Positions 27,469 to 62,316 of a stretch of 64,000 nt of DNA are shown here, piece after piece. The stretch lies in the sequence record PQ805430.1; one strand, written 5' to 3'. Every line of letters starts with the position of its first letter. Positions within the stretch are counted from its first letter, which is position 1. The stretch comes from Escherichia phage EK8. The notes under the pieces were generated by a model. The model saw only the letters and a program-made list of their open reading frames with translations, was not told where the DNA came from and did no database searches. The translations under genes and the position numbers were made by a program.

Positions 27469-27501
27469 ATAAAGAGGCCAACCCTAAGGTTGGCCGATTG
27501 G

Positions 27502-27801
27502 TTACGCGAGTTCGAACTTTGCACCTTCCGGCGTGGCTTCGCCATACGACAGGACGATGCGGGATGCCAGCGCTTTCAGTTGTTTCTCAACGTCAGCCTC
27601 AGACTTACAGTCTTTCAGCATGTCGATGATCATCCCTTCCAGGGGATGAGACTCACGCAGGCCAATACCCTGACCACCCAGACGTTTCAGACCTTGTTTG
27701 GTCATCACGCCGATGTTCAGATAGCCAGCGATTTTGTTGCGGTTAGCATCAGCAGCAGGAGCGGAGTTGTTAGAACCAGAAGAACGACGATTGAAAGCCA
27801 T
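27502..27801 (-). CDS. hypothetical protein, possible RNAP II accessory/DNA-binding factor
   Basis: 99 aa, basic Gly-rich N-terminus; directly upstream of RNAP II genes; GAGGT RBS. Confidence 0.4.
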   Translation of the reverse strand: MAFNRRSSGSNNSAPAADANRNKIAGYLNIGVMTKQGLKRLGGQGIGLRESHPLEGMIIDMLKDCKSEADVEKQLKALASRIVLSYGEATPEGAKFELA

Positions 27802-27864
27802 GATATATACCTCGAAGAATGAGTAGATGAATGATATTTAAAGGATTGGGGGGTTTTCCCCTCT

Positions 27865-27879
27865 GAGGCGCTATGCGCC
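27865..27879 (-). promoter_or_regulatory. candidate hairpin promoter (GC stem, TAT loop)
   Basis: AGGCGC-TAT-GCGCCT, ~65 nt upstream of 27801 start. Confidence 0.3.
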
Positions 27880-27881
27880 TT

Positions 27882-28163
27882 CTAACAGATGATGAGGCAG
27901 CTAACAGCGTCCCTCCAGGCTGCATAGAGCACCGGATTGCTGTTGACCTCATCATTGTATTGGGACAGGTCTTCGAACGCTTCACGACCCAGGTGGGCAG
28001 CAGCAATCTCGACCTGAATTTCCAGCGATATGTCTTCCATCACAAGCTGTGACAGACCTTTACGAAACAGGAACAATGCCAGAGCACGCATCTCCCCGTC
28101 TTTCCATGCACGGGAAGCCCAACGAAGGTTGGTTTGAGCGTGGTCAATATTCATATTTGGCAT
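27882..28163 (-). CDS. hypothetical early protein
   Basis: 93-aa ORF. Confidence 0.45.
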   Translation of the reverse strand: MPNMNIDHAQTNLRWASRAWKDGEMRALALFLFRKGLSQLVMEDISLEIQVEIAAAHLGREAFEDLSQYNDEVNSNPVLYAAWRDAVSCLIIC

Positions 28164-28230
28164 ACAGATAGTCCTTAAGGGTGAGCGAGGATCCCAGCAG
28201 CCCTGGAATCCCCGGTAGTTATTCTGTTCG

Positions 28231-28245
28231 ACGCGCTATGCGCGT
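28231..28245 (-). promoter_or_regulatory. candidate hairpin promoter (GC stem, TAT loop)
   Basis: ACGCGC-TAT-GCGCGT, ~70 nt upstream of 28163 start. Confidence 0.3.
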
Positions 28246-28529
28246 TTTCCTTCCAGAGTGACGTAGGACATTTCAACCGTGATAGTGGAGTAGACACCCA
28301 GCAAACACTTTGTGGCTATGGCATAACGCTCATCCCTACGCAGGGTAAATGCGTAGTAAACGTTATCCTGTTTGAACTGGTAGCTCTCGTTGATATCCAG
28401 CTTCGAGGGTGTATAGGCATAGATGCTCACATCAGCTAACACCACGCCTTCAATGGCATCGGTTATCTGGTTTATATCCCAGTCGATCACTGCGGTTAAG
28501 TCTTTGGATTTATACGTATGCTCGGCCAT
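28236..28529 (-). CDS. hypothetical early protein
   Basis: 97-aa ORF. Confidence 0.45.
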   Translation of the reverse strand: MAEHTYKSKDLTAVIDWDINQITDAIEGVVLADVSIYAYTPSKLDINESYQFKQDNVYYAFTLRRDERYAIATKCLLGVYSTITVEMSYVTLEGKRA

Positions 28530-28843
28530 TACATGCCCTTAATAGTTGCCTCCACCATTGTTACCTCTGGCTTCTTGAGCATGTGATGCGTCACGTAGAC
28601 AGCCAGGATGACAAACTTGTTGTCGATACCCGGTATGGTAACGATGGTCTGAATGGTTCCACCCAGGTTATTCGGGCCTAAACTGACGTTGGCCAGGTTA
28701 ACCGGGAAGGTGTCCTTGTACACGAATTTGGGGCTTATCAGCCGCATTGTACGAAGATGATCATACTGCTCAGCACTCAGCCAGCCTATGGCTTCACCAT
28801 CGTTTACCTTACGGATTTCGTACTCACGTACCTTAGTAGTCAC
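28529..28843 (-). CDS. hypothetical early protein
   Basis: 104-aa ORF, overlapping start/stop with neighbours. Confidence 0.45.
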   Translation of the reverse strand: MTTKVREYEIRKVNDGEAIGWLSAEQYDHLRTMRLISPKFVYKDTFPVNLANVSLGPNNLGGTIQTIVTIPGIDNKFVILAVYVTHHMLKKPEVTMVEATIKGM

Positions 28844-29205
28844 TCGGCTTCTCCTGTAAGTTTCAGCGGTGGTTTATATTTCAGAAACCAGCGTGAGATG
28901 ATACGGCGATTAACCTGTGGAATTAACTCACCACGGTCTACAGCACGTCCACGCCAGTCTTCCGGGCAGTCCATAAATATGGGCTTAGGCGGATCGCCTC
29001 CGTCATACCAGTACACGATGGACGGTAGTTCGAACACCGTATCGGGAGTTATCAACGTAGTGGTACGCATGGCATCAAACTCTTCCTGAGTTATCTTGGC
29101 CTCAACGATGAGGCTAATACCATTCGGGCTTCGTTGTAATATATCCCGTAAGTAAATTGATTTTGACATTAAAAGGGTATCTCCTTGGTGAAGTTGAATA
29201 CCCAC
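28840..29205 (-). CDS. hypothetical early protein
   Basis: 121-aa ORF. Confidence 0.45.
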   Translation of the reverse strand: MGIQLHQGDTLLMSKSIYLRDILQRSPNGISLIVEAKITQEEFDAMRTTTLITPDTVFELPSIVYWYDGGDPPKPIFMDCPEDWRGRAVDRGELIPQVNRRIISRWFLKYKPPLKLTGEAE

Positions 29206-29462
29206 GTCATCGGTTGAATAACATCTTCGATACGTTCGTATTCTTCACTGGTTAAAGTATCAGGACGACCTTCGAGATATAAATCTTCGGTCACATTCAG
29301 ATAGCTGGATACACCAAAGTCAGATTTGAATGTATCTACCACTTTACGGTATACAGCGCCTTCACCTAATAAGGTTAAAGCAGTACGTATAGCATCTACT
29401 TCATTCTGGCTTAACTGACATACCACACGAGAGAACCCTCTAGATCTTAGTTCGTATCCCAT
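29169..29462 (-). CDS. hypothetical early protein
   Basis: 97-aa ORF. Confidence 0.4.
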   Translation of the reverse strand: MGYELRSRGFSRVVCQLSQNEVDAIRTALTLLGEGAVYRKVVDTFKSDFGVSSYLNVTEDLYLEGRPDTLTSEEYERIEDVIQPMTWVFNFTKEIPF

Positions 29463-29785
29463 GGTGTATTAAACCTCGCTATTAGTTGACCGTTCTTTTC
29501 AAAGTACAGGAAATTAATACGGACTGAATCCAGATATAGAAGGCTGCTATTACCGGACACTAATAAATGCGGTACAGCCAGTTCTTCTTTTTTAAAAATA
29601 GGCACATCCAGGATGCAGTCCTCCACACCTAATAAGTGTTGAGTACGCATGTTTAATATCAGATCATCATTAATCTCGAAATAACGATGACCATTATCAT
29701 TAACGCTGGTGGCACGACAATAACGTTTCATGCACCCTCCACTCGAACAAAGTGATACATTTCCTGCACCGAAGGTGTAGGCCAT
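29447..29785 (-). CDS. hypothetical early protein
   Basis: 112-aa ORF. Confidence 0.4.
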   Translation of the reverse strand: MAYTFGAGNVSLCSSGGCMKRYCRATSVNDNGHRYFEINDDLILNMRTQHLLGVEDCILDVPIFKKEELAVPHLLVSGNSSLLYLDSVRINFLYFEKNGQLIARFNTPWDTN

Positions 29786-30039
29786 TCGAACTGGGAATTA
29801 GAGCATGGCTCTAATGTAATACGTAATTCAGTACCAGGTATCTGATATTGCATATATACGTTGGTCTGGATTAAGTGAATTTGTTCGGGTTTTAATATCG
29901 TCAATGAATCACGATAATTTATCATTCGATTGCCCAACAAATAGTTGGTACGAATAACCCCAATATCCTCTTCACTTAATTTACGTGAGATCAGATAACC
30001 ATGCTGTATGGCAGCAAGTATTATCTCGTTCACTTGCAC
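29728..30039 (-). CDS. hypothetical early protein
   Basis: 103-aa ORF. Confidence 0.4.
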   Translation of the reverse strand: MQVNEIILAAIQHGYLISRKLSEEDIGVIRTNYLLGNRMINYRDSLTILKPEQIHLIQTNVYMQYQIPGTELRITLEPCSNSQFEWPTPSVQEMYHFVRVEGA

Positions 30040-30689
30040 TCCTTATAACAGTAGGCAACGATTTCAACATCGACCTCTTTACGCCGGGCAACCATATCTT
30101 CATGCTCTTGAATACGAGCACGACCATACGGTGACAGCCAGTCATCAGGATCAGCTTTAGCGTAACGGGCTTCGATACAGCCACGACGCCACTTGATCAA
30201 ATAGCGATGAGCAGCCAGATATGACTTGAAGAACTGAGCACGATAAACGCACTCTTCATCAAACTCTCTGGCTTCATCACCCATTACACGGTTGGAGATA
30301 AACTTATCGGTAAGGAACTTACCGGTGCCAACCTCACGCAGGAAATACATGGTCTTGAATTGGGTATCACCCCCACGATATTCATGCAGTCGCAACATCG
30401 TGATTTCCATATCCTCACGTTGACGTGTGGGTACAGGAATAGGTTTACCCGGATAAGTCCAGTAATAGCTGTGGTATTCATCGCCATCCCAGTCTTCTTC
30501 ACGAGGGATCTGACCTTGCAGCCAGATGGTGAGATAGATTTTGGCATGGCGTAATTCCGGGAATACACGCGGATATGCTAACCGTGGATCAATGGGTTCA
30601 ACCCATGAACCACCACGCATACGACTGGACTTGGGTTTAGGCAGAAACTCCTTACGTCGTTTAATGGCATACACATGCTGAGTTAACAT
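30030..30689 (-). CDS. hypothetical early protein (219 aa)
   Basis: largest ORF in early block; Trp/Tyr/Arg-rich. Confidence 0.5.
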   Translation of the reverse strand: MLTQHVYAIKRRKEFLPKPKSSRMRGGSWVEPIDPRLAYPRVFPELRHAKIYLTIWLQGQIPREEDWDGDEYHSYYWTYPGKPIPVPTRQREDMEITMLRLHEYRGGDTQFKTMYFLREVGTGKFLTDKFISNRVMGDEAREFDEECVYRAQFFKSYLAAHRYLIKWRRGCIEARYAKADPDDWLSPYGRARIQEHEDMVARRKEVDVEIVAYCYKECK

Positions 30690-30928
30690 TAACGAAACCT
30701 CATTTGTGTTACAGGTTCAATGTGGAATTGCCAGTGGTTATTACCCAGGTATTCCACGGAATAGTAATTACCCATATGGTGGGTTTTATCCTTACCCATA
30801 TGGTTAATACTTACAGCCGGTGCATCAATGACATTAATACCCAGTAGTTTGAATATACGCATTTGATCCATCATGGCTTTAGTTAGCCAGATGCCTTTAC
30901 CGGTCTTACTACATCTGAGCTTTTGCAT
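30689..30928 (-). CDS. hypothetical early protein
   Basis: 79-aa ORF. Confidence 0.4.
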   Translation of the reverse strand: MQKLRCSKTGKGIWLTKAMMDQMRIFKLLGINVIDAPAVSINHMGKDKTHHMGNYYSVEYLGNNHWQFHIEPVTQMRFR

Positions 30929-31199
30929 AGGCTTCCTCTACTAATAAACGTAGAGCGTGCATAGCCTGATTACAGGTTTCACCCTCTTTGGTGATGTGGA
31001 TAATGTCAGCCGGTGTACCGTCTTCCAGGGTTTTACCAATATCCGCATACAGAATGTAATTACCACGGCCATCGGATTCCATAGACAGCTTTACGTCTTT
31101 CTCTTTGAAATAACGCTCATCATCTTCGTCGATAGCGTTAATTTCTGTATTGGTTCGATTACCGAAAGGACGGGTATAGATTAAGCAATTAATTGGCAT
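30909..31199 (-). CDS. hypothetical early protein
   Basis: 96-aa ORF. Confidence 0.4.
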   Translation of the reverse strand: MPINCLIYTRPFGNRTNTEINAIDEDDERYFKEKDVKLSMESDGRGNYILYADIGKTLEDGTPADIIHITKEGETCNQAMHALRLLVEEAYAKAQM

Positions 31200-31321
31200 A
31201 AGATTTACCTTTTAACCATGCAGCTTTATAGATATCCCATAAGTCTATCTCAATAGCTTTAGGGCCATAATTAGCAGTGAGCCACATTCTGTAATCACTG
31301 CGGCATTGAATGAGTTCTTGT

Positions 31322-31570
31322 TCAGTCACGGAATAATTGCTCCATATCGGTTAACAATTCGTATTTAAGGCTGACCTGCACTTCCATTGGAATGGGTTGA
31401 GGTGTCACGCCTAACATAAGCTGGGTTCGATGCTGACTTATAAAGTCCTCATCAATAATTTTGGTAATGAGTTGAGTTATATCTAACTCCACTTCACCAT
31501 CTTTAAGGTAATACCTTAAGATAATTGGTTTAAGTTTACTCATACGATTAGTCCAGGACGGGAAACTCAT
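31322..31570 (-). CDS. hypothetical early protein
   Basis: 82-aa ORF. Confidence 0.4.
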   Translation of the reverse strand: MSFPSWTNRMSKLKPIILRYYLKDGEVELDITQLITKIIDEDFISQHRTQLMLGVTPQPIPMEVQVSLKYELLTDMEQLFRD

Positions 31571-31590
31571 AAATATGGCCGGAGGCCATA

Positions 31591-31618
31591 AAAAATAAGA
31601 TAAGCCCCGAAGGGCTTA
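31591..31618 (-). terminator. rho-independent terminator (minus strand)
   Basis: TAAGCCC-CGAA-GGGCTTA hairpin with A-run on plus side. Confidence 0.55.
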
Positions 31619-31622
31619 TTTA

Positions 31623-31793
31623 GATTTAAACAAAGATATGGGATAACCAATCATAAATATCACAAAGCCCATTACGAGAATGAAGGCAGTGAATACCAGT
31701 TCAGCAATAAGCATGGCAATGGCAAACACAAACGGCAGCAGGCCAGTGAAGTAAAGTACGACCATTACGATCAGGAATGTGATCATTCAAATG
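31623..31793 (-). CDS. small membrane protein (~56 aa)
   Basis: hand-translated MITFLIVMVVLYFTGLLPFVFAIAMLIAELVF...; not in ORF track; coordinates approximate. Confidence 0.3.
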
Positions 31794-32175
31794 TTACCTT
31801 TTTCCAATACTGCATATTGATATAACCACCCTTACGAATATGTTTATCGATACGGTTAAGCGTATGCTCCACCTGAGCTTTAAGTTCTGGCTTGCAGCCG
31901 TCACGGTACTCAGCGGAATGCGCGAGGTAATAATCCTCGCCATAGATCGTTATCTCGATCCGATTGATGTAATACTGCTGTCCCAGGTGCGTCTGCATCA
32001 GACGACGAGCAATACGAGGGAATGTCAATGCGCGAGCATGTTCACGCTCTAAACGCATTTCGAAGCCCGCAGCACGGGCTTTAACGATTTCGTCATGTAC
32101 CATTAAATGTGATTGCATAATATGTCCCCAGTCCCGAAGCGATGATGAACAACCATACAGCGAGAATAATGGCAA
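31783..32175 (-). CDS. hypothetical early protein
   Basis: 130-aa ORF. Confidence 0.45.
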   Translation of the reverse strand: MPLFSLYGCSSSLRDWGHIMQSHLMVHDEIVKARAAGFEMRLEREHARALTFPRIARRLMQTHLGQQYYINRIEITIYGEDYYLAHSAEYRDGCKPELKAQVEHTLNRIDKHIRKGGYINMQYWKKVTFE

Positions 32176-32383
32176 TAATGCCTATCTCCAGTGCATGGTT
32201 AGGTTTGGTTCCGAACATGCGAGCACGTTCTTCCTCATGCCGAATACCCCAATAGAGCATCGGCACAACGATGATAGTGAACAACGCAAAGCCTAAGAGG
32301 TAACCCATACTTAGTCCTCGTACTGATTCATGCTTACCAGACGGACAGCAGCGAAGGTTGCTACTACGGATACAGCAGCCCAT
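32093..32383 (-). CDS. small membrane protein
   Basis: 96 aa with two hydrophobic helices. Confidence 0.45.
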   Translation of the reverse strand: MGCCIRSSNLRCCPSGKHESVRGLSMGYLLGFALFTIIVVPMLYWGIRHEEERARMFGTKPNHALEIGIIAIILAVWLFIIASGLGTYYAITFNGT

Positions 32384-32443
32384 ACGAGCAGACCGGTTAA
32401 AATAGTCATAATTAATACCTCTGGTTTAAATGGAATCACCCGA

Positions 32444-32456
32444 CTCGCTATGCGAG
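32444..32456 (-). promoter_or_regulatory. candidate hairpin promoter (GC stem, TAT loop)
   Basis: CTCGC-TAT-GCGAG in intergenic gap, ~35-60 nt upstream of next gene start. Confidence 0.3.
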
Positions 32457-32471
32457 CCAGGTTTTGATTAT

Positions 32472-33026: not shown

Positions 33027-33122
33027 AGTATGTCTCCAATAAGTTAAGTGTATTACTTCACTTAAAGTGCTATGCACTACTACCGGTCGTAACACTACGG
33101 TACTACGTACCTACGTGTTACT

Positions 33123-33174
33123 GACTAACCAATACTTCGTACTACGCTTCGCTACGTACTCGTATTGGTTAGTC
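33123..33174. repeat. perfect 13-bp inverted repeat flanking a 26-nt TACG-rich core
   Basis: GACTAACCAATAC (33123-33135) and GTATTGGTTAGTC (33162-33174); spacer TTCGTACTACGCTTCGCTACGTACTC. Confidence 0.6.
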
Positions 33175-33202
33175 TTACATCCCTAGTTATGTATACACAT
33201 AC

Positions 33203-33384: not shown

Positions 33385-33461
33385 CTAAACATAAGTAAGT
33401 AGTGTTTTACTCAGTAAATACATCCTAATCTCTGTCAACCTTTTCCACTAATATAAATTTC

Positions 33462-33476
33462 CGATAAGGGTTATCG
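33462..33476 (-). promoter_or_regulatory. hairpin with 3-nt purine loop (candidate promoter/regulatory element)
   Basis: CGATAA-GGG-TTATCG upstream of leftward early unit. Confidence 0.25.
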
Positions 33477-33610: not shown

Positions 33611-33641
33611 GAAAAGAAATAGCCTACTCCGAAGAGTAGGC
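33611..33641 (-). terminator. rho-independent terminator (minus strand)
   Basis: 8-bp stem GCCTACTC/GAGTAGGC, CGAA loop, A-run on plus side. Confidence 0.6.
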
Positions 33642-33903: not shown

Positions 33904-34217
33904 GAGTAATACTCCATAGCTATTGGATTAATGTAAGGGATGAAGGCATCTCACCTTCAAGACTCTGAAGCCTCCCACATCGCAGAGCTACGATTGTGGG
34001 TGCATACATGTGATTAATCTCAAGCAGACAATGTATGAAAACACTGAATGAGATGGATACGTATATCCATATGATGGCCTATGGCCTGAATTGTGTAAGG
34101 CGTAGTAAGAATCCTTTTTCAGCCAGCACTATGGAGGGGGTATCCACCCAAAGCTACAGCCAGAGTAGTAAGTTGAGCACTCGTACCTAAATTAAAAAAT
34201 TTTATAAAAGTTTTCCC

Positions 34218-51225: not shown

Positions 51226-54200
51226 ATGGCAGACTCTCTGTTGTCCCAGGCTCTTAATGCTTTAAGCAACGGCGAGTTCACCAATCCTACCGAAGCTGTT
51301 TCCGTTCCGCAGGCTGCTCCCCAGCAGCCTGTCTCCAAAGATTCTCAAGTCCTTGACGCCACCCAACGTATTAATACTGGCTTTGCTGCTAAGGGCATCT
51401 ATCCGTCTATCTCTGGTGAAATCGAACGTTTAAATCAGCAAAAAGCAGGACGTGAACAAGTCGTTCAAGCATACGAAGAAGATATGCAACGTCTGGTTCC
51501 AACCAACGCTTTAGAGTCTGGTTCCCCGGTAATTCGCACCGGTGCCCAGATTACCAACGCAATGGCTGGTTTCGGCAGTTCAATTGCACGTATCGCTCTC
51601 CAGGTGAAAAACCTTAACAATCTCGGTGCTGTAGCTGCCGGGATGGACGGTGCCACCGATGAAGAAAAACTCGCCTTTAACCGTGAAGCCACTCAACGTG
51701 GTGCTGAGGCTGCTGCACTGGTAGGCAATAATGCCCGTCGTGTTCAGGATATCCTCGGCGGTGTTCCGGGTGCGTCTGCTAAGGCGATTGCCGAAGCATC
51801 TGAAATCCCGAATCAGCTTAAGGCTTACCCTTCTGATACCAACCTGCTTGACCGTGAGATTCCTCGTGGTGCAGCAAAAATTCCTTCTGCAACTCAGGAC
51901 GATTCTCTTCTGGGTTCGGTAGGTCAATACTTCAATAACCTGAATGATCGACTTGTCGGATCGGTAAATGGCATGACTGGTGAAGACCAGACCGGCCAGA
52001 CTGAATCTGTACGTGACCGACTGCAACGTGCTCAGACTGCCCTTACCCAAACTCAGAAATCCCTGGGTAACACTGCACAAGGCGTCGATAACGAATGGGG
52101 AACGGACTCCTGGGTTAACCGTGAACAAACTCAACGTATGGCTCAGCAACTGGAAGAAGAGAATAAAGATCTCTCCATCCCTGGTGCTATTGCTAACACT
52201 GTTGGGGAATATCTGGCTAACCCTTCACTGGTTATCCAATCTGCCGCAGAGTCCTTACCTTACGCACTTGGTCGTGTCGGTATCATTGCCGGTACTACCG
52301 GTCAGGCGGTACAAAACCAGACTGATGGTTACCGTGGTCAGGCAGATGGACAGCTTCCTACTGATGAGCAAATCAGTGATGTAACCCGACTCAATGCGTT
52401 GCATTCTGGTTTGAACTTTGTGGAGAACGTAGTCAATGCACGCGCTCTTACCGGTCTTAGCAATGCTGCTATCACTGCTCCACTTCGCCGTGGTGGTGAA
52501 GCACTGGCTGATACTGCCCTCGGACGAGCGATTACCAACGCTGTCGCTCGGAATGGCGTATCTCGTGCTGCTCTGGCAGCAGGGCGAGCAATTACTCCCG
52601 AACCTGTTAGGGAACTTGGCCTGACTATGGCCATTAACGGTCTGACCGAAGCTGCACAAAATCAGATCGAAACTCGCAACCTGCTCGGTGATGATCGCTG
52701 GGATACCGAAGGCAACATCAATGCTGGTGTGCTTGGTGCCCTGTCTGCTGGTGTAATGACTGGCCCATCTACTCTGGCGGCTGGTGCCGGTGCCGTAGGT
52801 GAGCGTATTGCCCGTGCTGCTCAGGAACGTCGTGACGCTGCTAACCCACAAGCTGCCGAAGCTCGTCGTGCTGCACAAGACGCTGCTAAGCCGTTTGAAG
52901 ATCTGACCAACCCGGAACATGCGGATTACAACCCGCAGGCTGCTATTCGCCAACAGACCAACGTGTTTGCTGATGAATCAACTACTCCTGAAGTACGTCA
53001 GGCTGCTATCGACCGTGCTCAGTCCGTCCGTGATTCTGCCGAACAGAACCTGGCTTCGGTTACTGATGAAGTACGCCAAATCCAGAAAGATATGGCTACC
53101 CGTCAGGAAATCGAACGTCGTCTGGAAGATATCCAGACCAACCCGGATTCTGAGTACAAAGGTAGCGAAGCTCAACTGACCACTATCCGTGACCAGATTG
53201 ATGAGCGTATGCCGGATGAAGCTGCTCAACAGGATCTGGTTTCCCGCTTCCAGGCTGCAAACGAAAACGTTGAACGTGTGCGTAGTGCCTACGATCAGTT
53301 TGAGAATGCTGCTGGTCTGCGTGAACGTCAGGCTCCAGAAGAAGCTCAGGCTCAGATGGATACTGCTACCAATCCTGATGCAACTCAGGAACAGGTTGAT
53401 ACGGCTGCTGACCATGTGGTTACGCACCCTATGCAGTACACCCCGGAACAACTCCGTACTCTGGCCGATGATACGACCAACCGTTTCAGCGACACTCAGC
53501 GTGAAGCGATTCGTAAACTGGCTGATGCCCGTGTTGCCCAGAACAACCTGAAAGATGATCTGCGTGTAAACCAGGATATTATGCAGGGTGGTAAGGGCTA
53601 CCGTTCCCTGGGTGAATACACCTCTGCTTATGCTGCTGCTATCCGTTCCGGTGATAAGACTATGGCTACCAACCTGCGTGAGCAGTTAGGTCGCTTCCAG
53701 GCTTCTCATGAACAGAAAGCTGCCGTTGCTCAGCAAATGATGGACTCTGGTAACTACGGCCAGCTTATCCGTCAGAACAGTCAGTGGGTGGCTAACGAAG
53801 GTAAGAAACTTCGTGGTAAAGATAAGACCCGTAACGGTGCTCTGGATATTCATTCTGGCTCCGGTCGTCTGGTTGCTCGTCTTCAAGAAGAAGCCGAAGC
53901 AATCCGTGCAACTTCCGCTGCCCTGGATGCAATGTCTCAGGCTCGTCCGGCTGCTCCCGCTACCGCTCCGCAGCCGTCCTCCCCTGCACCAGCGAACGAC
54001 GCAACCACAACGGTGGAGGCGAAGCCGGAACCGGCAGTGGTGGAGTCGGAAGCGACTGTTACCAAATCATCCCTCTCTCACTATGCCAATGACGGCGTAC
54101 TGACTCAGGATGCTGATGGTGATATGGCTCTGCGTCTGGATCAGTTCTCTCCGGCTGAACAACAGTTCCTGCGTGACAACAATATGGTTGATGCTCAGAA

Positions 54201-57200
54201 CATGGTTAAAGCTGCTTTCTTACGCCGTGCTGAACCGCGTAAAGATGACGCCCATAAACCACGTACTCTGAACCAGCAAGACCGCATTGCCCCGGCAGAA
54301 CAACAGACTCAGCAAGAGCAGGTACAGGCTCAGGATACCAATGAGAATGACCCTACTCCGGCCAGCACTGTAGAAACCGACACCAACGTAACTACCGATC
54401 AGACTACGGCAACGAAGACTGACGAGAACACGAAGGCAGACGGTGCTACCCGTGTCCTACGTCCAGAAGGTAAATCTCTGGAGACTGCCCGTACCGAAGA
54501 ACGAGCTAAGCCATTCTCAGAACAGAACCTTGTTCTCACTGGTTTCGTTCAGCGTGTCCGTGAAGGTTTCGTTAACCCACTGGTTACCGTTGAAAACTTC
54601 ATGTCCAGCGTTATGGATAAAGCTGACTGGTCTGGTCGCTTCACCGAAGTGAACCGTTACCTTGCTCAGCCGATGAACGCTGCCCAGAAGAATCTGGTCG
54701 GTATGTTCACCAAATTCCATAAAGCAGTGGAAGGTGATATCGATCCTGCTATTAAACAGAAGATCGGTAAAACCCGTGGTGGTCTGGATCGCTCTGCTTA
54801 TAACTACCAGGATTTTGTCCAGTTTCTTACCACTGACGGTAAACTGGATGAAAACACGAAGACGGCCCTGACCGCCTCTATGTTCACCTGGCTTGCAGAG
54901 AACGGTAACAAGCTCATCGCCACTCGTGACGATATGGCTGGCCTGTTCCATATGGATAAAGGTGAAGTACCGGTAGAGATCCATAATCGCTTCTCTGAGA
55001 TCGGTTCTTCTCAGCGTGCTGTTATCCAGTCCCTTGGCCAACGTGCTTACCAGATGCTGGGCTTCAAGGTACTGAAAGACGTTGACCCTAACCGTGCTGG
55101 ACGTATGCAGCAAGCTCTCGGCATGTACGCAATGCACGTTATGATGAAACGTGGCTACCTGGAGCAGACAACTATGACTGCTCGTGAGTACGCCGACGTT
55201 ATCACTACTGGTTTGGATCCTGAAGCTGCTCAGGCTAAACGTGCAGAGTTTGCTCGTGACTTCCTGAATGGTGAGTCCATCGATAAAGCGAAAGAGACAT
55301 TCAACTTTGTTCGTGTACCACGTAAAGAAGTAAACGGTAAACTCGTACCGGCAGATAACATTGCCCGTATCGTTGAAGCCAACAAAGGGACTTCCGGGGT
55401 TATGAGCAAGCTGTTTAGCTTTGACTCATCCCAGACTTTCCCGTTGACTAAGAAGCCAGGTAAATTCATTCAGAATACCGTAGGTGACTTTGGTCAGCAG
55501 GTTCCTTCTGAATTGGCAGAACGTCTGACTAAAGCCCAGCAACAACCGTACCGGATCAATGAGTCCCTGGTTAACGCCATGAACACGATCCGCAATGTGG
55601 ATGAAGCTGCATTGCTGCACATGATGGGTGTTCGTACTGAGACAGAAACTCCGTTCATGCACGCTCGTGACCGTATCGGGCAGCAGGCCAAAAACGACGA
55701 TATCATTCGTGCTCTGGCTAATGCTGATGAGGTAATGGGTACTCTGGATTCCATCGACCAGCAGATCTATATGCCGCTGGCAGTATGGAGTAACAACCGT
55801 GTCGGCGTAGCGTCCAACATGCTCAACCCGCAGGGGAACAAAGTTCACCGTGCAATGGTAGGCATGGAAGCACACCGTGTTGATATCCCGGTAAACCAGG
55901 CACCAATCGACGCCAACGGTAACATCACTGAGTACGGCCAGTTCTTACTGACTGTGGCTCAGGGTATGGAAGAGGCGCCGATCAAGAAACCAGGCACTAC
56001 TGATAAGATGCCTACGGTTGATAAAGTGACTGGTGGTACTTATCTGCAAGGTATGCAGGAATACCTGAAAAGTGACAGCGTTCGTGCTGGCATTAAAGCC
56101 ATGCAGAATATCGTTGAGGGTAACTCCACTCCGCGTGATATCGAAACCGTTAAGCAAACCGTTGCCGAATTTGGCATGGGGCCACACTCCTTCCAGTCAC
56201 TCCATGCACTGGCTCTGGTTAACCAGGCTCGTGAACAGGGTGCTGAAAAAGTGCAGGTTGCTATCGGTGGCGAATCAGATGGTGTCACCAACGGGCCGAT
56301 CCTTACCAATGTGCTCTATGGTACGGCAGACACTGACCTTCTCGCTCGTGGTGGCCTTTACACTGCTGACGCTGGTGTTACCAACGTACCGCAGTACCGC
56401 GAACAAGGTGGGCAGGACTACTACCAGTTATTGGGGACAGCTCAGAAGGAAGCATGGGATGCCATGTATCCTCCGACGACTGGCCGGGTAACGGATCAGA
56501 ACCAGAAGTTCCGTCGTGCAATTGATTACTTATCTCCTGGTTTCGGCTCTCGTTCGAAAGCCAAAGTACAGGCTACCCCATTCAACTACGGTTCCGGTAT
56601 GGACTCGCTCAAGCGAGCAAGTGCCAGAGACACCATTGATAGTGTCTACGGTCATATCACTGATATTGCCGAAGCCTATAGCCGTTCCAAAGTTGAGGGT
56701 GATTTTGCTCGCCATAAACTGGAGAAAGCAATCGAGATCGTACTGGCCCAGGGCAAGACGCTAGGGATTAAAGTTCCCGCATTTTCCGGCCTGGGTAAAA
56801 CGGAATCACTGTTAACCACCGAATTGCCACGTCCAATTGTGGACGCGATTATGCAGATCGATATGGCTATCCGTGGTGAAGCATCCGAGACTGCGATTGA
56901 GCGTGTTGCTGCTCACTACATCAAAACCCGTGACACTAACACTGCGATTACTAATGCAGCGTTTGAAGTGGGCAAAGTTGTACGTGACCGTGCAGAGGCT
57001 CTGGCTCTGGAACAGGCAGTTAAAGACGGGCAAGTAGGTTCCATCAACGATATCGCCGTAGAAGGCTTATCGACTGATGCAAAAGCTAACCTGTCTGAAC
57101 AACTGCGTGAAGCCAGTGCTATCGTCCCTACCGCTACCGGATCCCTTTCCAAAAATAAACTGGAATCAGGTTACGTGGCTGCTAAGGTCGGTACTACCTT

Positions 57201-60200
57201 CAAAACCAATGACCCAACCACCGAGGTATATGCCTCGTTCCGTGAGGGTGCTAACCCTACTGGTACTGGCTTAACCAACACCAAACCGACGACCTTTAAG
57301 GACGTAAGATCTGGCGCTCAGGTTAAAGAACAGATCGCTCCGGGTGTGTCTACAAGTGCATTGGTTGTGCAGGGTACTGATGCTGCAATCTCAACTCGTG
57401 TTATCGCTGAGCGTCCGGCTCAGAACTTCCATGATGCGAACCTGTTCGCTATTACGGATATGATTGAAGGTGCCAAAGCGCAGAACAAAGCCATGTGGGA
57501 TACAGTGGTCGGTTATGACTCTCAGTTAGCGAATACCGAAGCATTAATCCGCACCCTAGAAGGTGTTACCCAACAAGACGGATTAACGTCACTGGATTGG
57601 ATTAATATTGCCGGGTCTTTGCAACAACTGGCTTTCAAGGCTGAACTAATTGGATCCCCTAAAGAGTCCGTATCGGCGGTAGCCGTACTTGGACGGGTAG
57701 TCGGTGATGCTTATAACCGTGAGATTGCCAAGCTCAACACACTCAACGAAGTTGAGTATGTAAACCAGTATGGTTATGAGGGTGGTGAATACCAGGTTAC
57801 TGCTGCCGACCGTAAAGCTCTGGCTGACAAAATTGACTCTCTACGCATATCACGGGATAAAGCGGTTGATAAGGCAATGACTCTTGGCGGTGAACTAAAT
57901 ACCCTGCTACAGCAAGGTACAACCACATCCAAGCGTAAAGCCGATGCTGTTAATGCTGCTCAACGCCGTCAGGCTATTGAACAAGCTGCTGCTGATAGCG
58001 TACCGGTTACCCGTGATGCCAAAGGCAAGAACGCTCTTGAGCGTTTCCTGACTGAAAGCAAAGACGGCACCGTTAATGCTAAAGACCTGATGAACTTTAC
58101 CGTTAAGTCCCTGGCTTCCGGTCGTACTGATGGTTCAGCACTGCAAAGCCGTATGCGTACCACTTACAGCGAACTTGCTAAAGTGCTCGCAGCGACTCTG
58201 CCGGAAAACCTGACCGTTAATATCCTGTCTGCTCAACATAATCCAAAAGGGGTTATGGGTGCTGAGCAGAACGTTAACTCACGAGCATGGTTTTATAGTG
58301 ACGGTAAGGTAAACCAGATCAACATCAAGATGGATGGCCCGGAAGCACCGGGGCTGGAAGTTGTGCTGCATGAAATGCTTCACGCTGCCACTGCCCGTGC
58401 TCTGGATGCTGCTCGCCGTGATCCTAAAGCTAACCCGGCTCTGACCGAAATCGTTGGCCGACTGGAATCACTGCGTAGCGAGATCGAACAGTCCGTACAG
58501 AGTATGCCTCAGTTTGCACCGGCAGTCCGTAACGTGGACGAGTTAATCTCGTGGGGTATGACTAATCCGGCATTTCAGCAACATCTTGATGGTTTGCAGT
58601 CCTCCATGTACCCACGTCAACGCGAAGGTGTACGTGGTCGTCTGGGTTCCATGTTTAAACAGTTTGCCAACACTGTGCTGCGTGCGGTCTACGCCTTTAC
58701 TGGTCGTAAGCCTTCCGCTAAACAGATGACGGCAATGGAAGCCCTAATTCTGGATACTGCTGACGTACTCCAGACTGCCACGGTTAATCCGGGCAATGCT
58801 GGTAACGTTAATCTGGCAATGGCCTCATCTACCCGTGCAGCACAAACTGCCGGACAGTACACCCATCGCCAGATATTCGATGCTCTGTCGTCCTCGACTG
58901 CTGGTAAGCGGAACACTTCTGCCTTTACCGGAAATCTGGGTAAGATCATCGAAAATGTATCGGATAAACTGTTTAGTCAAATTGGTGGTGATCACCTGAC
59001 CAACCTTCCGGCAGGTCACGGTTATACACCGGGCCAGGTATGGGCGAATGCTCTTACCGGGGGCAAGGCACCGTTCACTACCAAAGCATTGGCTGCTGGT
59101 TTCCACATGACTGACCAGGAAGCATTCGCTATCGAGTCCATTGAGACTGCGGTTGCTGCTGCTCTGGATTCTGGTTTCGGTACTGCTGTGAACCGTGAGA
59201 TCCGTAAATCCTGGGAAGCTGCCCGTAAGCAGGTAACCCCGGAACAGTTCCATAACGGTAACTGGAATACGGCTACCCCGGCAGAGAAAGCTGCTGCACA
59301 AGCAAAGTGGGATCACCTGTTCAAACTGGAAGCCAGCCAGAACGGTAAGAACCGCTACCTCGCACAGTTTGTGGCAATGACTCTGGGTCATGAAGAAACC
59401 AGTAAACTGATGGGCTTCACCAATGAAGTTGCCGATGCTAACGCTCCGGTCACTCCGTTCGAGAAAGCTGCTGCCTTCTTTAACCATTCGGTTAACTGGG
59501 CATCGGGTTACCTGACTCGCACCAACAATGGCCAACTGGTAAACCAGAAGGCTCAGGCACTGGCTCAACAGTTGATTGAAATCGACTTGAAGAACCGTGA
59601 CAAATCCGTTGATGCACTTGAGAAAGCGTTTATCTACGTCAGCGATCTGGGTGAGAAAGCTGGTAATAAAATCTGGGATGCTGCTCATGCAACTGCTGAT
59701 GCGAAACTGATTCGTGAGAACCCTCTCGGTATCGTTCGTATGGCCGGGTCTATTACCCGTCTGGCTGCTAAGCGTAATCTGGATGTGCTGAGCGATACCA
59801 TTCGTCAGGTACGTGATATGAATAACCCGAATACCGCTGATGGTTGGGCTGCTCAAATCCTGTCTGATATCGCTAACCCGGATAAAGTACGTAGTGCGTT
59901 CGAATCGCTGCAACGACACACGAACCTCATTGAACAACGTCGCCGTAATTTCGCAGAAATTACTCGTGGCAACGTGATGGGAGCGTTCGAAAATAACGGT
60001 GAGTATCTGACCAACGAAGATAAAACTGCGTTGTCTTATACCCTGCTGCGAACCGAAGCACACTCACTGCTCAATACCCGCTCCCTGGATGACGTTCAGC
60101 AACTGGTTTCCAGCAAAGCTAAACGTAATGCAGAGATTCGTAATCTGGAGCAAATCGTATTGGCAGATCCGAATGGTAATGATATGGTTATCCGCGCTAA

Positions 60201-62316
60201 AGCACTCGGCTATTATATGGTGACTGGGAAACCAACTGATGTAGGTTTAGCTAAGAATGCACAAGCCATTGCTTCTGGAGCTGGTACTCACTACGTCACG
60301 ACTGGTTTAGCAGACCGCAATGGTGCCCTGACAGAGGCAATAGATCAACTGGCTACTCTGTACGCCATAGACTACTCAAAACCAGAGCATTTATCGGCTA
60401 CTGCTGCCGTCATGAAACGTGAGATGGCTAACCCTTACAATGGCATTAAAGCGTTGCTGAATGTGCATAAAGTGCTGGCCGAGGACGCAGCCTCTACCCT
60501 GTTCCAGGATAACGAGATCTCCCGGATTAAAGGCTACGTTCCAGAGGTAACCAACCCTTATCGTGATGTGAAGATTGTTGAAGAGGGTGACCGTGCTCAA
60601 CGTTCAGAGCTTGAGGCAATGGGGTATCAGTTTGTAGGCATGGTGCCGACTGATCCGACTATCCCAAGCATGGGCAAGAAAGCAATGTACGCCACTAAGG
60701 ACAACGGCTCTCAACGTTACGTGTCTGGTGCTGTGAGCTTAACCAGCAATCAACGTAAAGGTTCGTCGGCTATCCGTAACCAGAACTACCGCAAAGGGCA
60801 AGGCCCGACTGTGGCCGATGGCAGCAAAGCTGTGTATGCCGCTGCTCGTCGCCGTGCTCAAATGAGTTATAAAGACTTTGACCCTACTCAGGTTAAAGAT
60901 ACTTATATGATTCCGGTGTTCGGAACTGATGGCCGTATTATGGACTTCCAGTACGAGATGAATGCCACTAACCGTGACACTCTGCTGGATCGTAACAATG
61001 ACTTTGCACACCTGCTGGGTCAGTACGCAGGGCAGAACTTCGATAAGCTGCATAGCCCGACTCAGAACCGAGTCATTATGGAAGCTTTACACGAAGACTA
61101 CCGATCCAACTACGCTGCCAATCCAGAGCGTTACGTTGCAATTGGGCCACAAGTTGCTGATGCCCGCTCCAGAGAAATCTGGGCTATGCTGCCGCAACAG
61201 ACCCGTTACGACGCTGAATCAATCTGGGGTGCAGGCGAACCTATGCAGGTACGCAGTGATCTGGTCAACCTCGTGTTCGGTTTCCGTAAGCTGACAGTGG
61301 CGAATGCCTTTGATAAGGATGCCCAGGATCGCAATATGGCCGAGTCTTTAGCGACCTCCGTTTTCAACACTCTGGGCCTCCTGACCAATTCCAACGGGAA
61401 AGTCATGGCTGCTCAGACTGAACGTGGTGTTCAAGGGGGTGTTGAACTACTGAAAGATATTATCGTGATCCGTAACGTCACCACTTTGATGCGCAACCTA
61501 GTGGGTAATGCAGCATTGCTGAAAGCCTATGGCGTGTCTCCGACTGATATTGTGAAGGACACCAAGACTGCTTTACAGGCTGGTTTGAGCTACCGCAAAA
61601 ACACTGCACTGCTGCTGAAATACCAACAGCAACAACGTGCAGGTATCGGTAACTACGAACAGCTTGAGCAGAAGATCATTCAACTGGAAGACCAGCTTGC
61701 TCGTAACCCGATCAAGGACTTCATCGAAGCCGGTACTATGCCGAGCATAGTTGATGATGTAGATACTTCTGATACTGCGTATACTTTTACGTCAGGCTTA
61801 CAGCAGAAGATCTCTGGTGTGACTGATAAAATCCCGGCATCTGTACGGACGGCGGCTAAGTGGGCGTTTGTGACTAAAGACACACCGCTTTACAAATTCC
61901 TGTCCAATACCGCTCAGTTCGGTGACTTTACGTCGAAATATGTGCTGTACAAATACAGTATGAATAAGGCGGATACTAAACTGAACCACGCAGAAGCGGT
62001 ACAGCGTGCAACCGATGCGTTCGTTAACTACGACCTGCCGACTTCGCCAGAGTTGCAGTATATGAACGACATGGGTTTGTTCATGTTTACGAAGTATCGT
62101 CTGCGGATCCAGCGTGCAATGCTGACCCTGATGAAGGAACGTCCGGGCACTGCACTGGCTCAATCCGTACTGGTGTCGCGCTTTACCGATGCACCTCCGG
62201 CACTGGAGCCTAACTTAATTACTGGTTTGGGTAATCCGTTCTCATCCGGCGTATTGCAGTTGCCGAATGCACTGACCCAGCCGATGCCGATTAAGTTAAT
62301 CCTCGGATCGCTGTAA
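51226..62316 (+). CDS. virion-encapsidated RNA polymerase (N4 vRNAP-like giant protein)
   Basis: uninterrupted 3696-aa ORF; size and position at end of late structural unit match N4 gp50; catalytic motifs not mapped by eye. Confidence 0.8.
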   Translation: MADSLLSQALNALSNGEFTNPTEAVSVPQAAPQQPVSKDSQVLDATQRINTGFAAKGIYPSISGEIERLNQQKAGREQVVQAYEEDMQRLVPTNALESGSPVIRTGAQITNAMAGFGSSIARIALQVKNLNNLGAVAAGMDGATDEEKLAFNREATQRGAEAAALVGNNARRVQDILGGVPGASAKAIAEASEIPNQLKAYPSDTNLLDREIPRGAAKIPSATQDDSLLGSVGQYFNNLNDRLVGSVNGMTGEDQTGQTESVRDRLQRAQTALTQTQKSLGNTAQGVDNEWGTDSWVNREQTQRMAQQLEEENKDLSIPGAIANTVGEYLANPSLVIQSAAESLPYALGRVGIIAGTTGQAVQNQTDGYRGQADGQLPTDEQISDVTRLNALHSGLNFVENVVNARALTGLSNAAITAPLRRGGEALADTALGRAITNAVARNGVSRAALAAGRAITPEPVRELGLTMAINGLTEAAQNQIETRNLLGDDRWDTEGNINAGVLGALSAGVMTGPSTLAAGAGAVGERIARAAQERRDAANPQAAEARRAAQDAAKPFEDLTNPEHADYNPQAAIRQQTNVFADESTTPEVRQAAIDRAQSVRDSAEQNLASVTDEVRQIQKDMATRQEIERRLEDIQTNPDSEYKGSEAQLTTIRDQIDERMPDEAAQQDLVSRFQAANENVERVRSAYDQFENAAGLRERQAPEEAQAQMDTATNPDATQEQVDTAADHVVTHPMQYTPEQLRTLADDTTNRFSDTQREAIRKLADARVAQNNLKDDLRVNQDIMQGGKGYRSLGEYTSAYAAAIRSGDKTMATNLREQLGRFQASHEQKAAVAQQMMDSGNYGQLIRQNSQWVANEGKKLRGKDKTRNGALDIHSGSGRLVARLQEEAEAIRATSAALDAMSQARPAAPATAPQPSSPAPANDATTTVEAKPEPAVVESEATVTKSSLSHYANDGVLTQDADGDMALRLDQFSPAEQQFLRDNNMVDAQNMVKAAFLRRAEPRKDDAHKPRTLNQQDRIAPAEQQTQQEQVQAQDTNENDPTPASTVETDTNVTTDQTTATKTDENTKADGATRVLRPEGKSLETARTEERAKPFSEQNLVLTGFVQRVREGFVNPLVTVENFMSSVMDKADWSGRFTEVNRYLAQPMNAAQKNLVGMFTKFHKAVEGDIDPAIKQKIGKTRGGLDRSAYNYQDFVQFLTTDGKLDENTKTALTASMFTWLAENGNKLIATRDDMAGLFHMDKGEVPVEIHNRFSEIGSSQRAVIQSLGQRAYQMLGFKVLKDVDPNRAGRMQQALGMYAMHVMMKRGYLEQTTMTAREYADVITTGLDPEAAQAKRAEFARDFLNGESIDKAKETFNFVRVPRKEVNGKLVPADNIARIVEANKGTSGVMSKLFSFDSSQTFPLTKKPGKFIQNTVGDFGQQVPSELAERLTKAQQQPYRINESLVNAMNTIRNVDEAALLHMMGVRTETETPFMHARDRIGQQAKNDDIIRALANADEVMGTLDSIDQQIYMPLAVWSNNRVGVASNMLNPQGNKVHRAMVGMEAHRVDIPVNQAPIDANGNITEYGQFLLTVAQGMEEAPIKKPGTTDKMPTVDKVTGGTYLQGMQEYLKSDSVRAGIKAMQNIVEGNSTPRDIETVKQTVAEFGMGPHSFQSLHALALVNQAREQGAEKVQVAIGGESDGVTNGPILTNVLYGTADTDLLARGGLYTADAGVTNVPQYREQGGQDYYQLLGTAQKEAWDAMYPPTTGRVTDQNQKFRRAIDYLSPGFGSRSKAKVQATPFNYGSGMDSLKRASARDTIDSVYGHITDIAEAYSRSKVEGDFARHKLEKAIEIVLAQGKTLGIKVPAFSGLGKTESLLTTELPRPIVDAIMQIDMAIRGEASETAIERVAAHYIKTRDTNTAITNAAFEVGKVVRDRAEALALEQAVKDGQVGSINDIAVEGLSTDAKANLSEQLREASAIVPTATGSLSKNKLESGYVAAKVGTTFKTNDPTTEVYASFREGANPTGTGLTNTKPTTFKDVRSGAQVKEQIAPGVSTSALVVQGTDAAISTRVIAERPAQNFHDANLFAITDMIEGAKAQNKAMWDTVVGYDSQLANTEALIRTLEGVTQQDGLTSLDWINIAGSLQQLAFKAELIGSPKESVSAVAVLGRVVGDAYNREIAKLNTLNEVEYVNQYGYEGGEYQVTAADRKALADKIDSLRISRDKAVDKAMTLGGELNTLLQQGTTTSKRKADAVNAAQRRQAIEQAAADSVPVTRDAKGKNALERFLTESKDGTVNAKDLMNFTVKSLASGRTDGSALQSRMRTTYSELAKVLAATLPENLTVNILSAQHNPKGVMGAEQNVNSRAWFYSDGKVNQINIKMDGPEAPGLEVVLHEMLHAATARALDAARRDPKANPALTEIVGRLESLRSEIEQSVQSMPQFAPAVRNVDELISWGMTNPAFQQHLDGLQSSMYPRQREGVRGRLGSMFKQFANTVLRAVYAFTGRKPSAKQMTAMEALILDTADVLQTATVNPGNAGNVNLAMASSTRAAQTAGQYTHRQIFDALSSSTAGKRNTSAFTGNLGKIIENVSDKLFSQIGGDHLTNLPAGHGYTPGQVWANALTGGKAPFTTKALAAGFHMTDQEAFAIESIETAVAAALDSGFGTAVNREIRKSWEAARKQVTPEQFHNGNWNTATPAEKAAAQAKWDHLFKLEASQNGKNRYLAQFVAMTLGHEETSKLMGFTNEVADANAPVTPFEKAAAFFNHSVNWASGYLTRTNNGQLVNQKAQALAQQLIEIDLKNRDKSVDALEKAFIYVSDLGEKAGNKIWDAAHATADAKLIRENPLGIVRMAGSITRLAAKRNLDVLSDTIRQVRDMNNPNTADGWAAQILSDIANPDKVRSAFESLQRHTNLIEQRRRNFAEITRGNVMGAFENNGEYLTNEDKTALSYTLLRTEAHSLLNTRSLDDVQQLVSSKAKRNAEIRNLEQIVLADPNGNDMVIRAKALGYYMVTGKPTDVGLAKNAQAIASGAGTHYVTTGLADRNGALTEAIDQLATLYAIDYSKPEHLSATAAVMKREMANPYNGIKALLNVHKVLAEDAASTLFQDNEISRIKGYVPEVTNPYRDVKIVEEGDRAQRSELEAMGYQFVGMVPTDPTIPSMGKKAMYATKDNGSQRYVSGAVSLTSNQRKGSSAIRNQNYRKGQGPTVADGSKAVYAAARRRAQMSYKDFDPTQVKDTYMIPVFGTDGRIMDFQYEMNATNRDTLLDRNNDFAHLLGQYAGQNFDKLHSPTQNRVIMEALHEDYRSNYAANPERYVAIGPQVADARSREIWAMLPQQTRYDAESIWGAGEPMQVRSDLVNLVFGFRKLTVANAFDKDAQDRNMAESLATSVFNTLGLLTNSNGKVMAAQTERGVQGGVELLKDIIVIRNVTTLMRNLVGNAALLKAYGVSPTDIVKDTKTALQAGLSYRKNTALLLKYQQQQRAGIGNYEQLEQKIIQLEDQLARNPIKDFIEAGTMPSIVDDVDTSDTAYTFTSGLQQKISGVTDKIPASVRTAAKWAFVTKDTPLYKFLSNTAQFGDFTSKYVLYKYSMNKADTKLNHAEAVQRATDAFVNYDLPTSPELQYMNDMGLFMFTKYRLRIQRAMLTLMKERPGTALAQSVLVSRFTDAPPALEPNLITGLGNPFSSGVLQLPNALTQPMPIKLILGSL

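Follow-up and report, generated by a model that had tools for sequence, protein, structure and literature searches.

In phage N4, the early promoters P1, P2 and P3 are hairpins recognised by the virion RNA polymerase (vRNAP) (Glucksmann 1992; Davydova 2007; Gleghorn 2008; reviewed in PMC4496689). Approximately the first 500 bp of the N4 genome enter the cell before this polymerase must transcribe to pull in the rest (PMC4496689). Recognition requires A or G at -11, G at -10, G at -8 and C at +1, with contacts through K114, R119, W129, D901 and R904; the G and A of the loop form a sheared pair, and K114 and D901 contact the G at -10 (PMC4496689). Described here are five hairpins, each with a TAT loop closed by a C:G pair (C-TAT-G), from 64,000 nt of Escherichia phage EK8 (sequence record PQ805430.1; one strand, 5' to 3'), the whole of which is referred to as the window. 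The hairpins are named, starting with the one nearest the genome end, sites E, D, C, B and A, and they are likely to be early promoters read by the RNA polymerase packaged in the virion. Three of them (A, B and C) had been proposed as such in an earlier note on this DNA.

The nearest experimentally characterised lineage that uses Drc is LUZ7, for which early transcription start sites were mapped by ONT-cappable-seq. Transcripts start at a G located 13-14 nt from the hairpin centre, and two tandem early promoters 33 nt apart, the strongest of the early ones, drive Drc, whose mRNA is the most abundant transcript (PMC9163698). The middle promoters of LUZ7, used by RNAPII and Drc, are also GC-rich hairpins, with stems of at least 6 bp and loops of 3-4 nt (PMC9163698).

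For the Cbunavirus phages CB1, CB3 and CB4, Buttimer et al. 2018 reported three potential hairpin promoters analogous to those of N4, and their Table S4 lists the orthologues of sites E and C together with a GGTAC-TAC-GTACC hairpin (PMC6027278). The GenBank records of CB1 and CB4 (KY514264, KY549659) annotate the orthologues of sites D, C and A as promoters, with the wording 'stem loop typically associated with N4 early promoters', and the Possum paper repeats the statement of three N4-like hairpin promoters. Table S4 and the GenBank records choose different sets of hairpins for CB1, CB3 and CB4. None of these sources on the relatives states a common C-TAT-G rule, and site B is annotated in no relative. 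Four of the five sites have therefore already been published or annotated as putative promoters in relatives, and this reading is not new; the unifying rule, the unannotated site B, a lineage-specific series of loops and a second class of hairpins are mildly new.

The C-TAT-G hairpins and their place in the genome

The five hairpins (Table 1) have perfect stems of 4-6 bp in the window, and of up to 7 bp in relatives, with a 3-nt loop and a closing C:G pair. All five are on the + strand, which serves as template for the early genes, and none is farther than 6.3 kb from the genome end inferred at 34170. When folded with DNA parameters, each forms the predicted structure (-3.3 to -7.4 kcal/mol). 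The three hairpins of the earlier note are all present on the + strand, the first of them at 27866-27880 and not, as given there, one base away at 27865-27879. Two more of the same type were missed by that note: site D, which emerged when the whole window was scanned for hairpins with a perfect stem and a 3-nt loop, and site E, found by comparison with relatives. The note had placed its hairpins 35-70 nt upstream of leftward gene starts, in agreement with the distances measured from sites A, B and C to the minus-strand start codons at 27801, 28163 and 32409 (65, 68 and 35 nt, respectively). These three start codons carry Shine-Dalgarno sequences. Site D lies 40 nt before its ATG (46 nt from centre to ATG), and the corresponding centre-to-ATG distance for site A is 72 nt. 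Site B overlaps the stop codon of open reading frame (ORF) 28236-28529, and site A lies 2 nt after a stop codon.

Hairpins with a GC-TAT-GC core (at least 5 bp, 3-nt loop) occur four times where 0.043 are expected, a count reached in none of 300 dinucleotide shuffles, and the opposite strand of the window contains none of at least 5 bp. When only the closing C:G is required and stems of at least 4 bp are allowed, eight C-TAT-G hairpins are observed as compared to 0.96 expected (0 of 500 shuffles); three of the eight, at 28788, 37437 and 38684, are 4-bp chance-level matches in coding sequence. A similar density of the motif in late coding regions, which the earlier note held to speak against promoters, was not seen: a scan of the 30-kb late region found no C-TAT-G copy of at least 5 bp. 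In the complete 76.6-kb genome of CB4 the motif is present at 89, 912, 1810, 6491 and 6855, with the right-hand repeat copy at 76062, and beyond the first 6.9 kb and this repeat copy there is a single 4-bp chance-level match (31274). The 11-mer GCGCTATGCGC, with one mismatch allowed, gives two matches against 0.99 expected and is not significant by itself; the signal resides in the structure and the loop.

The position of the hairpins relative to the genome end follows from the relatives. The window is 78-84% identical at the DNA level to the phages CB1, CB3, CB4, phiA41, Nepra, Possum and Kc283 (about 83% for CB1, CB4, Nepra and Possum) of the genus Cbunavirus, family Schitoviridae, which infect Pectobacterium and Kosakonia. 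No entry in the phage record collection is closer to the window than these, and it therefore represents a new species of a known genus (Cbunavirus-like Schitoviridae). Base 1 of the CB1 and CB4 genomes corresponds in alignment to position 34170, so the physical end of the genome falls inside the assembly, and it is near 34170 that the early region begins, proceeding leftward; genes on the minus strand read leftward from approximately 34 kb down to approximately 5 kb. The terminal repeat of about 650 bp (about 33520-34170) is present once in the window. This single copy, together with the run through the genome end, indicates that the source assembly is circularly permuted or collapsed.

The distance of the first hairpin from the left end is nearly the same in every genome compared: 96 nt in N4, 86 in LUZ7, 89 in CB4 and 90 in the window. 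Within the first 500 bp of the genome, site E is the sole all-GC hairpin with a 3-nt loop. It is a candidate first vRNAP promoter, for the 84-aa membrane-protein gene at 33649-33903 (-). Sites resembling host sigma-70 promoters are depleted in 24000-34500 (10 as compared to 20.8 expected), and host sigma-70 promoters were rejected as drivers of these genes on this ground. Known RNA families were also rejected, since Rfam 15 at the gathering threshold returned two tRNAs and nothing else across the whole window. These two are adjacent genes in the late region, at 39202-39274 (-) and 39283-39355 (-), with equal Rfam scores; in relatives this place is occupied by tRNA-Asn and tRNA-Gln.

Table 1. 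Features of the window discussed in the text, with positions, strands and context
Feature	Position	Strand	Sequence or size	Context
Site E	34076..34086	+	GGCC-TAT-GGCC	Loop centre 34081; in the terminal repeat; 90 nt from the inferred left end (~34170)
Site D	33066..33078	+	AGTGC-TAT-GCACT	Loop centre 33072; first non-repeat early gene downstream, ATG 33026
Site C	32444..32456	+	CTCGC-TAT-GCGAG	Loop centre 32450; small membrane-protein ORF downstream, ATG 32409
Site B	28231..28245	+	ACGCGC-TAT-GCGCGT	Loop centre 28238; ATG 28163 downstream
Site A	27866..27880	+	AGGCGC-TAT-GCGCCT	Loop centre 27873; Drc-family gene downstream
vRNAP gene	51226..62316	+	3696 aa	Giant ORF; proposed reader of the hairpins
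Drc-family gene	27502..27801	-	99 aa	ssDNA-binding RNAPII cofactor; downstream of site A
RNAPII subunit gene	26467-27468	-		phrog_2166, E 6e-118
RNAPII subunit gene	25182-26456	-		phrog_2051, E 4e-151
Stem-loop	27850..27861	-	GGGG-AAAA-CCCC	Predicted 5' end of the Drc mRNA; covaries, GGGC...GCCC in relatives
Intrinsic terminator	33622..33641	-	GCCUACUC-UUCG-GAGUAGGC + U-run	End of the site-E transcription unit
Terminator, same class	31600-31619
Terminator, same class	27476-27495
Terminator, same class	24972-24992
C-GGA-G hairpin	31574-31590	+ (template)	6-7 bp GC-rich stem
C-GGA-G hairpin	24046-24060	+ (template)	6-7 bp GC-rich stem
C-GGA-G hairpin	22697-22713	+ (template)	6-7 bp GC-rich stem

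Conservation of the hairpins and the downstream start motif

CB4, phiA41, Kc283, Nepra, Possum and CB1 each carry an orthologous hairpin at every corresponding site, and orthologues are also found in the more distant Enterobacter phage vB_Ecl_SABI and in SABI-type IMG/VR contigs. The promoters predicted previously in Cbunavirus are orthologous to window sites E, D, C and A, with the same TAT loop, strand and downstream genes. The window phage is a different species from CB1, CB3, CB4 and Possum, and some of its stems are altered by compensatory substitutions. An exact-pattern scan of IMG/VR with site C and its flanks returned a single contig, a duplicate of phiA41.

An alignment of 37 copies was assembled, in which orthologous and paralogous hairpins are mixed and the counts are not independent events. 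C-TAT-G is invariant in 37 of 37 copies while the stems vary. Pairing is retained in 86.5% of cells, and changes occur on both sides in six of the seven pairs. Compensatory cells number 24, as compared to 6.5 in shuffles (0 of 500 reach this value), and the signal is gone when the partner is slid by 1-3 columns. As read from the alignment, this pattern marks a selected structure with a sequence-specific loop.

The individual sites illustrate how freely the stems change. Site A occurs with the arms AGGCGC, ACGGCC and AACGCGC, the ACGGCC/GGCCGT form of Nepra, Possum and CB1 representing three compensatory pairs. At site C the stem is CTCGC or CGTGC, and the CGTGC/GCACG of the orthologues represents two such pairs. 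Site D stems are AGTGC, ATAGTGC and TACGC. Site B is present in all eight genomes compared; its stem is compensated in SABI (AACGTGC/GCACGTT), and in CB4 only the GCGC core is left, with an adjacent T.G. The CB4 orthologue of site E is TGGCC-TAT-GGCCA, centred at position 89. Natural copies with weakened stems, such as site B of CB4 and site A of one IMG/VR contig, indicate that the stem can be as short as 4 bp, as it is in LUZ7.

Downstream of the hairpin, a TG(G/A) motif is conserved. On the RNA-like strand, counted from the loop centre, T is found at +12 in 27 of 29 distinct copies and G at +13 in 23 of 29; every one of 19 distinct combinations of site and flank has a G at +13 or +14. By analogy with LUZ7, the predicted 5' ends of the transcripts are 34068/67 (E), 33059 (D), 32437 (C), 28224 (B) and 27860/59 (A). 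In the case of window site A, the stem is perfect, but the TGTG start motif that is canonical elsewhere has been lost through a 9-nt deletion, and GGGG now occupies +12 to +15. The stem-loop at this predicted end (Table 1) may be a 5'-end stabiliser of the Drc mRNA.

A metagenomic contig 96% identical to the window (IMGVR_UViG_3300038674_000113, 1400-1440 compared with window 27850-27885) has a different site A, in which the 3' arm and the region of the start are SABI-like (GCGCGTT ATGTGCAATT); this produces a G.G mismatch in the stem and restores the TGTG start motif. To judge from the two sequences, this looks like local recombination at the promoter.

Comparison with N4 and LUZ7

The giant ORF proposed to read the hairpins has a vRNAP core that is approximately 86% identical in amino acids to the annotated Cbunavirus vRNAPs, and its catalytic DGVTNGP motif aligns with D559 of N4. 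Pairwise BLASTP against the N4 vRNAP gave 24% identity over only 154 aa around the catalytic motif, and a phmmer search of the polymerase against PDB gave no match. When 11 vRNAP cores were aligned with MAFFT, the catalytic motif was aligned; the columns of the N4 recognition residues were gapped or substituted outside the N4 clade, in a part where the alignment is unreliable. The core has diverged too far for the contact residues of N4 to be mapped onto it.

The N4 promoters were recovered at 96, 565 and 4554 (GC-GRA-GC), before the gp1, gp2 and RNAPII genes, and the window sites are similarly located toward the left end. Both sets have a 3-nt loop with a central purine on the template strand, the N4 stem being 5-7 bp. 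The loop centre, at -11, is A in all copies here, in keeping with the purine at this position in N4. To this extent the earlier note, which had invoked a purine-centred loop, was correct; N4 also needs G at -10, which is T here, and the LUZ7 loop GTA is pyrimidine-centred. T occupies both -10 and -12 in 37 of 37 copies, whereas N4 requires the sheared pair of -10G and -12A. The C at -9 is invariant here, and -8 is G at window sites A-D but C at site E and at site A of Nepra, Possum and CB1. The predicted start differs as well: in N4 the template C at +1 is 11 nt from the centre, with an equivalent GG at +11/+12, whereas here the conserved G is at 13-14, and at +11 the RNA-like strand has G in sites C and D and A in sites A, B and E. 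The cofactors are gp1 and gp2 in N4 and Drc here. Membership of the hairpins in the broad class of Schitoviridae virion-polymerase promoters, outside the N4 consensus, is supported. LUZ7, with yet another loop (GTA), is the closest model that has experimental support.

Hairpins of LUZ7 were located by our own scan and then matched to the verbal description in the published study (PMC9163698). They are at 86, 797, 3669 and 3701, the last two being 32 nt apart and directly upstream of Drc. GG is found at +13/+14 in three of the four and at +12/+13 in the fourth (3669). The window resembles LUZ7 in its template-strand stems of at least 4 bp, 3-nt loops, closing C:G pair and a first hairpin at about the same distance (approximately 86 nt) from the left end, and also in having a promoter candidate in front of Drc (site A). 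The loops differ, being C-GTA-G, with a pyrimidine centre, and C-GAA-G in LUZ7 and TAT here. The two hairpins near Drc form a tandem 32-33 nt apart in LUZ7 and are separated by 365 nt in the window, and the vRNAP cores of the two phages are only about 25% identical.

The whole length of the Drc-like ORF matches phrog_6271 (E 1.3e-34), a family to which LUZ7 gp14/Drc also belongs (E 5e-37), and a conserved YLN motif is found in the multiple alignment of the family. BLASTP of this ORF against LUZ7 gp14 gave no alignment, and their kinship is established by the shared PHROG profile and the multiple alignment. The Kc283 record annotates the Drc orthologue as an RNAPII cofactor.

By analogy with these systems we infer the start sites, the extrusion of the hairpins and their binding by the polymerase, and a sequence of events can be proposed. 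The left genome end would enter the cell first, and negative supercoiling would extrude the inverted repeats. The polymerase would then bind the hairpin on the template (+) strand through the loop and the closing C:G pair, and leftward transcription would begin at the G, 13-14 nt away from the centre of the loop. Transcription-coupled entry of the genome would be initiated from site E, at 90 nt from the end, and the first genes for host takeover would be expressed from sites D and C. Drc would be transcribed from sites B and A and so, via read-through of a weak terminator, would both RNAPII subunits, early genes whose expression has to come from the virion polymerase and which would turn on middle transcription.

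A second hairpin class and the rival explanations

A second class of hairpins, with the loop C-GGA-G, is found on the same strand (Table 1). The copy at 31574-31590 directly follows a terminator, and an ATG comes 4 nt later. In relatives the GGA stems are wholly replaced by compensating sequence (ACGCAC as compared to CTGGCC, and TATGGCC as compared to AATGCAC), and in CB4 all GGA copies of at least 5 bp are on one strand within the first 14 kb. LUZ7 has hairpins of the GCGTTC-GGA-GAACGC type directly after its RNAPII genes (8246, 9530), and the GGA type is also present in Klebsiella phage P19-618. By analogy with LUZ7, the GGA hairpins are probably RNAPII/Drc middle promoters; the GGA hairpins of LUZ7, matched by description, are presumably its mapped middle promoters.

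Intrinsic terminators in this region have 8-9 bp stems with mostly UUCG loops, also UUAG and UUC, followed by a U-run. The earlier note had set terminators apart from its hairpins by longer stems and an adjacent U-run, and this distinction was borne out. A U-run is absent after the hairpin at sites A, B, D and E, and weak at site C only (GAUUCCAUUU).

The proposal that these hairpins are vRNAP promoters, made in the earlier note, has gained support from the vRNAP gene in the window, the location of the hairpins on the template strand near the left end, their invariant loop and covarying stems, positions like those of N4 and LUZ7, TG(G/A) at the spacing mapped in LUZ7, and the depletion of host-type promoters. 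Several points weigh against it. The loop has neither the G at -10 nor the A at -12 required by the N4 vRNAP, and residues K114, R119, W129, D901 and R904 of N4 are not recognisably conserved in this polymerase, so these sites cannot be certified by the rules of N4. Window sites A and B do not have the T that relatives carry at +12, and some natural copies have weak stems (4 bp at window E; 4 bp plus T.G at CB4 B; a G.G mismatch at site A of the 96% identical contig). The second conserved class, on the same strand, carries an N4-type C-GGA-G loop, and the allotment of the TAT and GGA classes to their polymerases is argued from position only. At site C, folding of the RNA-like strand can give a terminator-like stem of 11 bp, which includes two G.U pairs and is followed by a weak U-tail. 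In the literature as we found it, there is no 5'-end mapping, in vitro transcription or transcriptome for any Cbunavirus.

The presence of two classes raises the question of whether the polymerases could be swapped, with the TAT hairpins serving as RNAPII/Drc middle promoters and the GGA hairpins as those of the virion polymerase. A GGA loop with a closing C:G is the loop of N4 P2 and P3, and LUZ7 middle promoters are hairpins too, so that shape alone does not name the polymerase. However, a TAT hairpin stands at 90 nt from the genome end, like N4 P1 and the first LUZ7 hairpin, and the first GGA hairpin is reached only after 2.6 kb. RNAPII cannot act until both it and Drc have been made, and it is a TAT hairpin that immediately precedes Drc. 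The 6-7 bp stems of the GGA class and its location in LUZ7 just after the RNAPII genes fit the published middle promoters, and the swapped assignment is improbable. It is similarly doubtful, at a low level of likelihood, that the elements function at the RNA level, where read-through transcripts would contain them as C-AUA-G stem-loops and where they would partition the early operon as 3'-end stabilisers, RNase processing sites or weak terminators. In keeping with such a role, sites C, B and A are inside a region transcribed from upstream, the 11-bp stem of site C was flagged by the terminator scan, and sites B and A overlap or closely follow stop codons. However, only 90 nt separate site E from the physical end, the linear genome that infects the cell has nothing there to be transcribed from farther upstream, and the real terminators are a class separate from the four sites that lack a U-run. 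The sole wobble in a core stem (T.G at CB4 site B) belongs to the template strand of the DNA; in RNA the same pair would become a mismatch, C.A. The invariant loop and the downstream TG(G/A) fit an initiation signal, and the strict orientation is left unexplained by a role in RNA. A role in RNA is least unlikely at the internal sites, above all at site C, which may have a dual role.

Palindromes are also typical of dimer binding, and the GCTATGC core recurs; the hairpins might accordingly never be extruded and instead be bound as duplex by a protein of phage or host origin, for example a repressor or a nucleoid, replication or packaging factor. This is highly improbable, given that stems differ freely among sites and phages while pairing is kept, which argues for a structure and not a sequence-specific duplex. 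Only the five nucleotides C-TAT-G are invariant, and the asymmetric loop has the same orientation to the downstream gene at five sites versus none. As for chance inverted repeats, or inherited sequence without function, palindromes of a few G and C bases arise often, and the search with the 11-mer alone gave no significant excess. The shuffles never reached the observed counts, compensatory changes are seen across genomes only 70-80% identical, and all five sites are intergenic (B overlapping just a stop codon) and on the same strand. Taken with the CB4 whole-genome scan, the shuffles and the covariation effectively refute chance.

Apart from the virion-polymerase reading of the TAT hairpins, the loop itself varies among lineages. 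Upstream of the Drc homologue it is GTA in LUZ7, TAT in Cbunavirus and the SABI-type phages, and TGT in the Klebsiella P19-618 group. P19-618, from a more distant lineage that encodes Drc, has 8-bp CATTGCCC-TGT-GGGCAATG hairpins at two positions, one of them upstream of Drc, and a variant of that stem with a CGTG loop before the first non-repeat gene; the positions equal sites A and D (hairpin coordinates 10177, 11810 and about 14290). These hairpins have TG at +12/+13. The TGT hairpins of P19-618 indicate that the early-promoter loop differs by lineage. A joint reading is tentatively put forward, and it may well not hold in full: two loop-coded promoter types would share one strand, C-TAT-G for the virion polymerase and C-GGA-G for RNAPII/Drc, and the early loop would have drifted by lineage. 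In that reading the loop appears as G-R-A in N4, G-T-A in LUZ7, T-A-T in Cbunavirus and Enterobacter SABI, and T-G-T in Klebsiella P19-618. T-R-T loops cannot form the sheared G:A pair that underlies the unusual stability and SSB resistance of the hairpins in N4, so extrusion and recognition would need a different structural solution, possibly a T.T pair presenting the central purine.

Two further elements are located near site D. A 33-nt imperfect palindrome at 33089-33121 (GTAACAC-TAC-GGTAC-TAC-GTACC-TAC-GTGTTAC) is centred 33 nt upstream of the site D centre. Its outer arms covary in CB4 (GTATACC/GGTATAC), and the block 33076-33126 is 94% identical in the Enterobacter phages SABI and SonariX, where the flanks do not align. 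The core of this palindrome is listed as a promoter in Table S4 (PMC6027278), yet it is without a G at +13/14. Between the terminal repeat and site D there is also a 141-nt run without C (33203-33343, +), made up of degenerate TAGATA and AGTA repeats; the next longest run free of any single base in the window is 44 nt. P19-618 has a similar tract in the same place.

One rule, which asks for a template-strand C-TAT-G hairpin of at least 4 bp and a G at +13/14, retrieves all C-TAT-G predictions made for these phages, plus one unannotated site, and tidies the literature where the paper and the GenBank records disagree on the hairpins. The current understanding of N4-like phages is left intact. 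The five candidate promoters, including those for genome entry and Drc, give a map of early transcription with predicted starts. Orthogonal hairpin promoters may be of some use in synthetic biology, and the loop series GRA, GTA, TAT and TGT is a natural set for studying how a single-subunit polymerase re-tunes its recognition of a hairpin.

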